A stretch of 64,000 nt of DNA from Kondoa subrosea (GCA_039545335.1 BCIN01000001.1:2353129-2417128); one strand, 5' to 3'. Positions 37,186 to 41,879 are shown, numbered from the stretch's first letter. Numbers and translations are program-made. Notes: a model not told the origin generated them from the letters alone.

Positions 37186-38090
37186 ATGTCCATGTCAGCT
37201 ATCAAGTGCGTTGTTGTAGGTAAGGACTTGGGAAAGCTCCAAGGTCAGAGCGTCGGAAAAGCTCATGCTGTTTCTCTTCTCCTAACAAGGCGATGGTGCG
37301 GTTGGCAAGACATGTTTATTGATCAGTTATACAACGGTACGTGTTTCATCGAACAAACATGTACGAGTTCGACTCTAATTATGCTTTTGTTTTTGTTCAG
37401 AATGCCTTTCCGGTTCGCCCTTTTTCCCACTTTGTAATCATTGCTATTCCTAATTATGCCTGGTATCTCAAATAGGGCGAATACATTCCAACAGTCTTTG
37501 ATAATTACTCTGCCAATGTAATGGTAGACGGGAAACCGATAAATTTGGGTCTTTGGGATACAGCAGGTCAAGAAGATTATGATCGCTTGCGACCTCTGTC
37601 TTACCCTCAAACGGACGTTTTCCTTATCTGCTTTTCTCTGGTCTCTCCTCCTTCTTTCGAAAACGTCAAAGGAAAGGTAAGGGATAACACAGTGCTTTCA
37701 GTTCAAAACTGATGGTATAGTTCGTTATTTTGCTTACAGTGGTTACCTGAAATCAATCATCACGCACCAAACATTCCTATTCTCTTGGTTGGCACAAAGC
37801 TTGATCTAAGGGAAGATCAAGATACGATAGCTAAACTGAGAGATCGGAGAATGATGCCTATCCAATATTCGGAAGCGGTACAACTTGCAAAAGAAGTAGG
37901 CGCAGTCAGGTATGTTACTCCTATCTTCCCTCAGAAGTAGCCGATGTACTTATTTTTGCGCGTTAGATACTTGGAATGCTCAGCTTTAACTCAGAAAGGT
38001 CTCAAGAGCGTCTTTGACGAAGCAATTCGAGCTGTCTTGAATCCGCAACCGCGCAAAGAGAAGAAGTCGAGCAAATGCGTGGTGTGTTAG
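37186..38090 (+). CDS. RAC1: Rac small GTPase
   Basis: '[73 protein letters not shown]'; C-terminal CVVC. Confidence 0.97.
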
Positions 38091-38380: not shown

Positions 38381-40040
38381 ATGCTTTCGTTTTTATGGAT
38401 CATAGCGTGTCTTCCCGCTATTTCAGCTCATGTATTTTACTTTTTGTTGCTCCTGTATGCTCTTGCTTATTCTGTGTACCAGAACTGGCTTCTATACGTA
38501 CGCGAAAGCACAGACATAGCAAAGAGTGCTGCGCTGAATCTGTCATCTGATGATTAGCCTCAACCTCGCACTCCAGGCAAGCTTTACGGCGGTAACTCAG
38601 TACGTCGACACCTTTTCCGAAAGCAGTGATTGTCCGGCTGATCGCTGTACCATTAGCTGGAAACAGACAACTGCGAAAATGGAGATCAATCTGTTCCAGA
38701 AATCAATATTTTCCAGCGAGGTCAACGTATATCAGCTCAACACACATATGCGAATCATATCAGCGGGTTTGTGCGATTTGCAATCTTACCAATGGGTCAA
38801 GAGAATTCTGTTGAAGCCATGAACGATCCGTCAAACTTCTTGTCCATTGGCTGCCATACCGGCACTTGCGGTGGACGTACCAACGATATTGATGATCCAG
38901 TCTACAATTAGTACGCAACTTACTTCGGGTACTCGATGTATGAGTGTTGAGCTGAATGACAATCACAGCTTCGAACCTTATAACCTACCGAAACAAACAG
39001 GCATTCCAGTAGATTTCACTCCCGGTCCACAATTCGGCTGCAATACTAGCGTTCTGTTCCCTTCGACTTTACCAGATGGAGATTATGCTTTGCAATGGTT
39101 AGTTTATGGCATGCGAGGGAACTTTGCACCACATCCTGAAGCGATGGTACGACTGATCTAACTTTGTTGTAAACTGTTGCTAATCAATTTTGCATGATCG
39201 CACAGGCGCTACCTTTCTATCGGTCAGCTTGACTCGCAAAGATGTGTTTTCATATTATGCTCATCGTCTCTTGCAGCAATTGCGCGAACATACGCATTCA
39301 AGGCGGGGCCAAGCTCACACAGAAGCCGACAGGAAAGGCAGCGAAATGTGCATTCGAATTTCATGGCGGCGATCGAGTAAGTCGAGTCCCCTCGTGGATG
39401 TTCGTATCACTGATTGTGCAATTCAGACACTGAGTAAGATTTCGGACGTCAATAACATCAAATCATCAGACCTAGATACAGTGAGTACGGTTCAAGTGCC
39501 CAGTGATAGTCCCTGAACTATATTTTCCTAGTCACAATGTTCTTACTGGCGCTATTCTTCTTTGAACGCGTCCGCAAGTTACTACAACCCTCCTGGATTC
39601 TGGGCTATGGCGGAAGCAGGTCTTCCGCAAACGGACCAAACAGCTTTCCGCGCAGGACCACCTGGTAAGTTCCCATTTGCCTTTCGGTACATTTCGCTAA
39701 ACTCTCTCTCTTTAGCCGAAGTGTTAGCTTGTGGAGGTCATCTGTCCAGCTCGAAACCAAGCTCGAGCCTACTCTCCAACAATGCAACCTATATATCTAG
39801 CAACACAACATCATCAAACACAAACGCAACCATGTCACAATCTGATGTAGCGCCTGGAAGTCAACTCAACGATCTGACTGAGAATGCAAATGAAGAGGAT
39901 GCTACTGTTTTACCTGATACCAAAGTCAAGTGTGCCGGTGGCAAGCACGCGAAAGCTATTCGCAAAAGAGTGTACTTTGGAAACCATTGTGAGCTCGCTT
40001 TTGCTGCCTGATGCTAGCACTCATATCATGTCCGTCAGAG
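38381..40040 (+). CDS. Secreted LPMO-like (histidine-brace) protein
   Basis: Signal peptide ...PAISA|H-NWLLYPQPR; second His in 'ANHISGFVRFAILP'; 'LPDGDYALQW'; 'FYRNCANIRIQGG'; S/N/T-rich tail. Confidence 0.7.
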
Positions 40041-40158: not shown

Positions 40159-41778
40159 TCAGCCGAAAACAGGATCTAATATAAGATCATAGCCTCCAGC
40201 ATCTTTCTTGTCTGCCACTCTCGTTGGAGCGGAAGGTGAAGCATAAGGTTTTGATTTCCTTTGGCTCAGGAATCAGCTCTGTACTGCTTGATCGCCAAAT
40301 AAAACGTACTTCTCGCCCGCTGCCTGCGAAGGAAAGCTTTGAAACGCTTCGGGATGCTTGGGTAGCGGCGATTCGCTGTTTAGACTAAGACTGAGAAACG
40401 ATTAATCGAGTAATTACTTTAAACTCACGAGAACCAAGAATGATTGAATCCTTCTTGAGCTGTACATCTTCTATCTGGATCGTAGCAAAGTAGTTTACCC
40501 ATTAGATCGAGACCAGCTTCGGTCGTATGCCTGAATTTCTGCCGTAATTGCGAGAATCTGTATGAGACATGTATGAAACAAGTCTAAACCGTAGATTTGA
40601 TGACATACGGTTGTATAGCTTGCAAATTGAACGATTTCGCATTAGGCAGCTTCTCAAATCCAGGCCAGATGTCGTCATTTGGTCTACCGAGCAACTTGAA
40701 GATTTTGTTCACTTGATCGATTTCACCCTTTCCGGGCACCAAAGGCTCTTTTAATATCAGTTCTCCCATAATACAGCCTATGGACCAAATATCGACCGCT
40801 GTTGAGTATTCCGTTGCGCCGAGTAAGAGTTCCGGTGCTCTGCAGGCTCAAATTCCAGACACAGGACGTATGGAGAGAGCGAAGAGCTGACCGATACCAC
40901 AGTGTCACTACAAGCTGTGTCATATCTCCCAATGGATCGCCATACGTCCGTGCCAAGCCAAAATCAGCGACCTTGATCTGACCACGATTGTTCATGAGCA
41001 AATTTGAAGTTTTGAGATCTCGATGAACGATCCAGTTATCATGACAATAACCAATAGCTGATAAAAGTTGTTTGAGAAGTGTCTTGATTTCAGATGCGAG
41101 AAAAGGTTGAGGCATAACGTGAAGTAAAGTTTTGAGATCGTGCTCTATGAAATCAAAGACCAGGAAAACTCTGTCCTCCAATGAGTATGATGTGAGATCT
41201 AATTCGCAAATAGACGAAGTGAACGCAGACTGACTGTGTGAGAGTATCGCCAACTACTATTTCCCTACACCTGACAATGTTCTCGTGCGCGCTACAAGCC
41301 ATCAACGTCCTGATTTCCCTTAGAGAAGTGATAGGAAAGCCATTCGTTTCTTGCTGCATCTTGAGTTTCTTCAACGCGACTCTATCCCTCACTTGAGCTG
41401 TATGCTCAGCTGAATTGGCCAAACTCGGACGCACACTTCTCCAGTCTCTTTATCTCTTGCTCTCGATACAACACCATACGAGCCTTCTTCAATATGATTC
41501 AACCGTTCAAAGCAATAAACCGATCTGCATCCATACAATCCTGAACCCTGATATTGTTGGTCTCTTCTCTTCCCTCTATTACTCGACGACGATGGCACAG
41601 GTGAAGCAGTCCCGCTACTTCCCTTGTTCTTGAAAGCAGCAAGTTTAGCAGCAGCTTGTTCAGAAGATTGTTTCAATTTCTTTGCTCTTTTCCGCTCAAG
41701 ACTTGCTAAACGATCTTCTTCTATTGCTGCAGAATCATCTGTTTCCCATTTCGAACGCTTTCGTGGGGGTTCACTCAT
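40159..41778 (-). CDS. CDK11: CDK11/PITSLRE-family cyclin-dependent kinase
   Basis: '[27 protein letters not shown]', '[10 protein letters not shown]', '[10 protein letters not shown]', '[14 protein letters not shown]'. Confidence 0.92.
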
Positions 41779-41879
41779 TTTCGCGTGAAGATGGTCGAAA
41801 GAGAGCGGAAAGTAAATAATATACGGCAAAGTAATACATTCGATAATAAATTGACCAAGGTCTCTCATACTCCCAGATC

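Follow-up and report, generated by a model that had tools for sequence, protein, structure and literature searches.

A micro-exon-rich gene of Kondoa subrosea encodes a putative secreted histidine-brace protein of an uncharacterised LPMO-fold family

A ten-exon gene at 38381-40011 on the plus strand of a 64,000-nucleotide stretch of Kondoa subrosea DNA (GCA_039545335.1 BCIN01000001.1:2353129-2417128; this whole stretch is the window, and positions are counted in it unless another locus is named) encodes a protein with a conserved leader, a histidine directly after it and relatives that model as LPMOs. With moderate confidence we propose that the product is a secreted monocopper histidine-brace enzyme that cleaves a wall polysaccharide and belongs to an unclassified LPMO-fold family near AA11 but outside it. 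The family appears to be uncharacterised, and its second sphere is atypical. LPMO families rest on small numbers of sequences, and every family added so far has come with a new substrate or role.

Gene structure

Manual exon joining gave a gene of the intron-rich fungal type, with 1140 nt of spliced sequence, a product of 379 aa and nine introns, all GT-AG and 50-60 nt each. Exon 1 (38381-38431) encodes the leader and His17; the predicted signal peptide of 16 aa (38381..38428, from hydropathy and conservation) ends in an Ala next to this His. The His17 codon (38429..38431), the final codon of the exon, would encode residue 1 of the mature protein (His1), by alignment and structure register a predicted copper ligand. 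The earlier note had placed an intron directly after this codon and then a 15-nt exon, and the coordinates agree: the intron is 51 nt long and is followed by exon 2 (38483..38497), which the splice test described below supports. Exon 3 (38558..38599, 42 nt) is supported by that test and by alignment with the database orthologue P0001. Exon 4 (38657..38910, 254 nt) carries Glu38, Cys42, Glu43, the second His and Cys102/Cys107; the codon of the second His, His70 (mature His54), lies at 38756..38758 within an N-H-x-x-G-F-x-R motif, and the alignment makes it the predicted second copper ligand. Exon 5 (38969..39146, 178 nt) encodes the L-Q-W motif on the penultimate beta-strand. Exon 6 is a 17-nt micro-exon (39206..39222) that holds both Pro183 (39212-39214), at the position of the AA9 Gln and the AA11 Glu, and Tyr185 (39218-39220; mature Tyr169), the predicted axial residue. 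The final core strand and the beginning of the C-terminal loop, with a G-G-D motif, are on exon 7 (39277..39376, 100 nt), which is followed by exon 8 (39427..39480, 54 nt) and by exon 9 (39532..39664, 133 nt), where the Cys240 and Pro281 region closes the extended catalytic domain. Exon 10 (39716..40011) contains Cys287 at the domain end, a Ser/Thr/Asn-rich linker, the basic tail and the TGA stop codon (40009-40011). All exons are on the plus strand. The motifs quoted in the earlier note are all present in the spliced product; of the extent that it gave, 38381..40040, the start was right but the gene stops at 40011; exon 3 and exon 6, the latter with the axial Tyr, are additions to what that note describes.

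The splicing can be regarded as confirmed at the sequence level because three independent lines agree, namely a contiguous database match, a test of splice combinations and paralogues that lack some of the introns. P0001 (387 aa), predicted from a contig of 1,371 nt that is most likely an assembled transcript, matched the spliced product in BLASTP with 227/374 identical residues (61%, E 3e-165) and was gap-free at every exon junction. Among 1,897 combinations of 0-3 GT..AG introns in 38429-38690, of which 1,137 were stop-free, the proposed splice was the sole one with 25/26 identity to the first mature residues of P0001, and the next best reached 20. In the paralogues L019 and L020 the His and the residues that follow it are contiguous in DNA, and in L017a exons 2-4 are partly fused, exon 2 being joined to the exons after it. 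An unspliced reading of the locus was ruled out by stops in all frames, and no stop-to-stop frame contains more than one or two of the gene's parts. Since gene finders that miss exons of 6 to 17 nt drop copper ligands, the family is probably undercounted in intron-rich basidiomycetes.

The neighbours are of the housekeeping type and comprise a GTPase, a kinase and an acyltransferase; there were no CAZyme neighbours and no carbohydrate cluster around the gene. The Rac-type small GTPase gene (37186-38090, plus strand, 195 aa, six exons, one of them a 12-nt exon at 37401-37412) ends about 290 nt upstream of the LPMO-like start. The protein-kinase gene (PF00069), which from its motifs we take to be CDK-like, is convergent at about 40200-41800 on the minus strand.

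Copies in the genome and relatives elsewhere

A search of the genome assembly (G000, 18.9 Mb, 27 contigs) found eight copies of the gene, that is the query, five close copies (48-53% identity to the query over the domain) and two distant ones (28-29%), and with a spliced-alignment script all seven others were spliced into open frames. The second His is kept in seven of the eight copies; at the axial position five copies have Tyr and three have Phe. The exception for the second His is L018 (G000:C1:2846800-2850200, minus strand), a natural brace-less variant with Arg at this position and a long acidic low-complexity tail instead of the C-terminal loop. At L017 (G000:C1:63000-68500) two paralogues stand in tandem, separated by about 2 kb; they share 63% identity over the domain, and their modelled parts have 8 and 14 exons. 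Very short exons recur: the second His is on a 13-nt exon in L017b and on a 6-nt exon in L020 (L020:1050-1055, on G000:C4), L019 has an 8-nt exon, and in L022 the His1 codon is split by an intron. L021 and L022 (G000:C6, 452k plus and 435k minus) form a second sub-lineage with 65% mutual identity, both with an axial Phe. In a quick, unrooted tree of 81 rows, built from family members only (reference AA families, cluster duplicates and most of one over-sampled clade were left out), the query paired with P0001 at a support of 100, and this pair fell in a near clade of 12 members with a support of 97; these are the only groupings that the tree supports. L021/L022 were placed apart, which suggests that the genome carries two old sub-lineages. 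Canonical AA9 matches (PF03443) occurred at about nine other places in the genome and at none of the eight loci.

A search of 1.84 billion representatives with an exon profile gave 75 proteins at E<=0.001, with P0001 as the best. One match, P0019 (4,728 aa, with cadherin repeats), was judged false and was left out of all alignments. Names were looked up for 30 of the 75, many of which had no name or taxon; the named relatives come from Paraphysoderma, Allomyces, Catenaria, Coemansia, Basidiobolus, Neoconidiobolus, Entomophthora, two Pythium species, Gracilaria, Agarophyton and Pyropia, a range that takes in Blastocladiomycota, Zoopagomycota, oomycetes and red algae. Nearly all are called 'hypothetical' and none is characterised by name; the automatic names include AA9, chitin-binding type 4 and lysophospholipase, each given to one protein. 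Judged by sequence, the gene at 38381-40011 is thus not an orphan: its genome has seven further copies, and the family extends widely across eukaryotes. We found no description of this family in the open full-text literature, whose coverage leaves out subscription journals and bioRxiv supplements.

Further searches gave leads only. In the ESM Atlas, exon 4 as query led to an LPMO_10 cluster (27% of members) at 0.90 and the orthologue to an unnamed Zoopagomycota cluster at 0.92. A word-index search with exon 4 alone gave 5 candidates and a search for long fused forms gave 421; none of either set scored, which for the fused forms is weak evidence. Two viral structures matched a relative's model at E about 2e-5, and one Atlas cluster is 71% viral (Nucleocytoviricota); the relatives P0017, P0020 and P0034 are among those that run uninterrupted on contigs of 15-69 kb. 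The family may thus have giant-virus members. Some relatives carry appended modules, a ricin-B lectin in P0125, an unassigned, repeat-like C-terminal domain in P0005 and three hevein-like Cys repeats in P0071, where PF00187 stays below its cut-off.

The predicted copper-site residues are strongly conserved across 137 aligned rows (6 genomic models and, from 154 database proteins, the 131 with a length of 180-700 aa; near-duplicates are included and one clade is over-sampled). Of the 121 rows that cover its column, 117 have His1; His54 is found in 135/136, preceded by Asn in 134/136. Position 169 is Tyr in 97, Phe in 25 and Trp in 3 of 130 rows (Tyr/Phe in 122/130), and 104 of the 114 rows that span all three columns have His, His and Tyr/Phe jointly. 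Outside the site, Cys240 is found in 126/126 rows and Pro281 in 119/121.

The leader is conserved as well. The most hydrophobic 19-residue window of the protein begins at residue 2, Ala stands directly before the His in all eight genomic copies, and the residue before His1 is Ala, Gly or Ser in 105 of 110 database rows. Cleavage by signal peptidase would therefore be expected to expose His1, and a His as the first residue after the predicted signal peptide, as in the LPMO superfamily, recurs in all eight genomic copies.

Fold and predicted copper site

Two relatives, mature P0001 (273 aa, 63 sequences) and P0022, were folded with AlphaFold and stand in for the protein of the window (pLDDT 80.6 and pTM 0.83 for P0001; 81.8 and 0.74 for P0022). 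Both models bear out the LPMO fold that the earlier note had proposed, with AA11 nearest and AA15 next. When the P0001 model was compared with 48,161 chains, the top 23 rows were all LPMOs or histidine-brace kin, led by AA11 (7P3U: Z 10.9, rmsd 3.3, 155 aligned residues, 21% identity; 4MAI: Z 10.8) and followed by AA15 (5MSZ, 9.6), AA9 (5ACF, 9.5), AA10 (9.4), AA13 (9.0), X325 (8.7) and AA16 (7.8). For P0022, AA11 and AA15 were tied (7P3U: Z 11.2, rmsd 3.5, 152 aligned; 5MSZ: 10.7; 4MAI: 10.5). The Foldseek search that the earlier note had suggested, run on a model of a relative, put AfAA11B first (E 8.3e-6). AA13 (4OPB, Z 9.0-9.6) and AA14 (5NO7, Z 7.3-7.7) were found at 10-16% identity and had no sequence match. 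The fold lists contained no row with an AA17 label, which does not exclude AA17.

A profile of 63 family members, searched against PDB sequences, pointed the same way and had only LPMOs in its top 28 rows (AoAA11, E 9.6e-10; AA16, 7ZE9, 3.2e-8, where the match is two short stretches; AA9, 5e-8). Early exon profiles gave no match to PDB sequences in one run and two at E 0.17-0.4 in the other. In the family profile, His1/His54/Tyr169 fall on His1/His60/Tyr140 of AoAA11 (4MAH; counted from the printed alignment), and His1 aligns with residue 1 of AA11, AA15, AA9 and AA13 chains. Because of the register to His1 and His60 of AoAA11, His1 and His54 are probably adjacent in space, and the pairing of the first residue with a second His, which the earlier note had read as a copper site, is upheld by the profile.

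Could the protein instead be a secreted immunoglobulin-like beta-sandwich, structural or binding in function, whose histidines form no copper site? Such a fold is common (1,704 chains at Z>=2), the paralogue L018 has no second His, and copper binding is here a prediction. Against this stand the first-position His and the near-invariant second His across fungi, oomycetes and red algae, and the 23 best structural rows, all of which are LPMO-fold histidine-brace proteins or their kin. We consider this alternative very improbable and retain the copper-binding histidine brace as the predicted site.

Family assignment

The earlier note had suggested that the protein is no typical AA9 and may be unclassified, and the tests with Pfam and phmmer agree, as the orthologue P0001 has no strong match to an established AA family. 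The AA9 model PF03443 did not match the exons in the window and gave P0001 15.5 bits at a cut-off of 27.8; one of 60 relatives passes (P0058, 29.8, also named AA9 in UniRef), and none of 57 relatives passes an LPMO-type Pfam model. PF03067 (AA10/AA15) did not match P0001 and reached 22.4 in one of 60 relatives (cut-off 23). No AA11 model was among the Pfam or NCBIfam scan matches, and phmmer gave no AA11 chain at E<=10 for P0001, P0037 or P0008 and one at E 0.12 for P0058. PF20238 (BIM1-like) left P0001 unmatched and matched three of 60 relatives below its cut-off. Weak matches to DUF7492 (PF24320) were found in 15 of 63 members and to NF043005 (SCE4755 monooxygenase-like) in 7 of 63; the DUF7492 cut-off was passed by P0156 only (1/10), over about 57 residues. 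X325/Bim1 proteins have a GPI-type C-terminus and an Asp as an additional copper ligand. The residue before the axial position is Asp in 77 of 130 rows and Phe here. AA18 appears, by a link drawn from citation in PMC13431639, PMC11946906 and PMC13353379, to be an unrelated jelly-roll copper enzyme, CelOCE; with His1 and, on the models, a beta-sandwich LPMO fold, the protein at 38381-40011 would not belong to AA18, which is a jelly-roll without an N-terminal His.

The possibility that this is a deeply diverged AA11 branch, which CAZy/dbCAN already count as AA11 (or loosely as AA9) and to which the gene would add a member but no new family, has to be weighed here. AA11 is the best match by profile, by Foldseek and by structural alignment, C-terminal loop included, and P0058 bears an AA9 name and passes the AA9 cut-off. 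In addition, Entomophthora muscae (PMC11105155) and Zoopagomycota mycoparasites (PMC13188720) are reported to be enriched in AA11, Pythium oligandrum to have 16 'AA9' (PMC7720654) and Rozella to have AA11 (PMC6690862); some of the AA11 and AA9 reported in these lineages may belong to the family described here, and accessions of our relatives were not found in the supplements of PMC7720654 and PMC11105155. On the other hand, the protein lacks the Glu that, according to PMC10472438, every AA11 has two residues ahead of its axial Tyr, identity to AA11 structures is 17-21%, the phmmer searches above were essentially blank for AA11, and the profile E values for AA11, AA16 and AA9 differ by less than two orders of magnitude. 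We therefore hold an AA11 branch to be unlikely and prefer a family near AA11 but outside it.

The second sphere

Mutagenesis has shown the second-sphere Glu/Gln to be crucial in LPMOs. A Gln or Glu near the copper is kept in >96% of AA9, AA10 and AA11 when two positions are counted (PMC10472438): every AA9 and AA11 has it at one common backbone position, and some AA10s, such as SmAA10A, in which the position of this Glu is known, have it at a second place (PMC10472438, PMC12186267). AA16 has its Gln at the AA9 position (PMC10088020), and LPMOs have been recognised by an N/Q/E-x-F/Y motif (PMC5320794). The axial Tyr of AA11 is found here as Tyr169. The motif reads P-F-Y, however, and Pro183 stands where AA11 has Glu and AA9 and AA16 have Gln; among 130 rows of the family, one has Glu at this position, two have Gln and none has Asn. 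Five of six near-clade genomic copies, as well as P0001 and P0002, carry a Glu four residues ahead of the first Cys that could occupy the second place, but such a Glu is found in only 7 of 127 rows overall; a Glu directly after the first Cys is also common in the near clade.

This loss bears directly on a reading in which the protein has a histidine brace but cleaves nothing, either as a copper scavenger or carrier like X325/Bim1 or as an oxidase of the MtAA16A kind that makes H2O2 for the AA9s of this genome. The canonical Glu/Gln is absent in 127 of 130 rows, the fold is common to X325 (6IBH, Z 8.7-9.1) and AA16 (7ZE9, Z 7.8-8.5, with the profile E given above), and there are the canonical AA9 matches for such an oxidase to serve. 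MtAA16A and AnAA16A, which have a normal brace, are described in PMC10088020 as cleaving no carbohydrate but boosting AA9s, and PMC12186267 gives histidine-brace proteins without cleaving activity. Yet the axial Tyr/Phe is kept in 122 of 130 rows, the nearest folds are the catalytically active AA11 and AA15, the BIM1-like model and a GPI-type tail are lacking, and some relatives carry lectin-like appendages. Overall, this reading seems to us a good deal less probable than a cleaving enzyme, which we continue to favour, but somewhat more probable than an AA11 branch.

C-terminal region

The earlier note had described an extra C-terminal region. The region exists, but it is mostly extended catalytic domain plus a low-complexity tail and is no separate recognised module. 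From the core to about mature residue 271 it aligns with the C-terminal loop of AA11 and AA9 (P0001 model range 1-267/268). As the structural alignments with AA11, AA9 and AA14 extend to residue 267-268 of the P0001 model, most of the region corresponds to the C-terminal loop of catalytic domains, although the loop is longer here than in AA11 and AA9 and has extra cysteines. Residues 289-350 form a 62-residue linker with 48% S/T/N, in which there are three N-glycosylation sequons; the protein ends in a basic tail of 29 residues that contains two Cys. A separate folded C-terminal domain is disfavoured; none of five single exons matched in a Pfam scan (0/5) that included the exon 10 region. We saw no GPI-type or transmembrane segment, the top 19-residue hydropathy past the leader being 0.5. 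A basic Cys-containing tail after a low-complexity linker (39922-40008 in the window) recurs in P0009, P0016, P0020, P0024, P0027, P0028 and P0098.

Discussion

How might the protein work? After signal peptidase has freed the amine of His1, this amine, the His1 ring and His54 would bind one copper over Tyr169, and the copper, once reduced, would with H2O2 (or O2) oxidise a glycosidic carbon in a wall polysaccharide. The substrate would most likely be chitin or beta-glucan of fungal walls, either in remodelling of the fungus's own wall or on another fungus; these are the most plausible because the family lies near the chitin-active AA11, P0071 has hevein-like repeats and many hosts have chitin walls. 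We are less confident of chitin in particular, because the family is also present in oomycetes and red algae, which argues against chitin as the sole substrate. With Pro in place of the canonical Glu/Gln, H2O2 could be positioned from another backbone position, as in chitin-active AA10; candidate residues are Glu22 or Glu27 of the mature N-terminal loop in the near clade (Glu38 and Glu43 of the precursor, the possible alternative second-sphere acids on exon 4) and, family-wide, the near-invariant Asn53. The linker and the basic tail may hold the enzyme near the anionic cell surface. A cleaving function is weakened by the loss of Glu/Gln (kept in 3 of 130 rows), by the restriction of the candidate Glu to one clade, by the Arg of L018 and by the lack of CAZyme neighbours; it is favoured by the carbohydrate-type appendages of P0125 and P0071 and by the presence of eight copies in 18.9 Mb.

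A wider and more speculative proposal, to which we give only limited credence, is that of an ancient undescribed LPMO family with the signature R/Y-x-N-H-x-G-G-F-x-R. Its members would be found in basidiomycete yeasts, Blastocladiomycota, Zoopagomycota, oomycetes, red algae and perhaps giant viruses, and would cleave polysaccharide without the second-sphere Glu/Gln, regarded as essential, by an H2O2 arrangement around the Asn next to the second His. If this were true, some of the genes counted in the reported 'AA11' and 'AA9' expansions of insect-killing and mycoparasitic lineages would be mislabelled members of this family. Because His1, His and Tyr are kept and Glu/Gln is lost across fungi, oomycetes and red algae, the family offers a natural test of a catalytic brace versus a copper store and could show the limits of variation in LPMO chemistry. 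A single genome already provides a comparison set of eight copies, with an axial Tyr or Phe and one natural His-to-Arg variant.

Among known systems, DUF7492 and NF043005 are likewise uncharacterised LPMO-like families and have the last strands in common with the present one, but P0001 matches neither. AA16 (MtAA16A, 7ZE9) and X325/Bim1 (6IBH, PF20238) are also secreted fungal proteins of the histidine-brace fold, whereas the protein described here has a larger domain with a C-terminal loop and lacks both the AA16 Gln and the GPI-type tail. With AA9 (PF03443) it shares the fold, the axial Tyr, the C-terminal loop and a weak Pfam similarity in the last two strands; it lacks the Gln two residues before the Tyr, and the true AA9 matches of the genome are at other loci. 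AA15 (TdAA15A, 5MSZ) is similar in fold (Z 9.6-10.7), in His1, in the axial Tyr and in its broad eukaryotic range, which according to PMC5823890, where the AA15 ligands are also given, includes oomycetes and red algae; however, the alignment with AA15 ends with the core (1-179), identity is 17-20%, and the second His is at 54 here and at 91 in AA15. AA11 (AoAA11, 4MAH/4MAI; AfAA11A, 7P3U; AfAA11B, 9EXJ/9HDG) is the most similar, with the fold including the C-terminal loop, His1, the axial Tyr, the late C-A strand and a comparable spacing of the second His (54 here, 60 in AA11), which here has an Ala two residues before it. It differs in its sequence, at the 17-21% identity noted above, in having Glu138/139 where Pro is found here and in the surroundings of the second His (H-G-G-G-S-C, compared with N-H-x-x-G-F-x-R here), while the K. 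subrosea protein has the longer C-terminal loop with the extra Cys.
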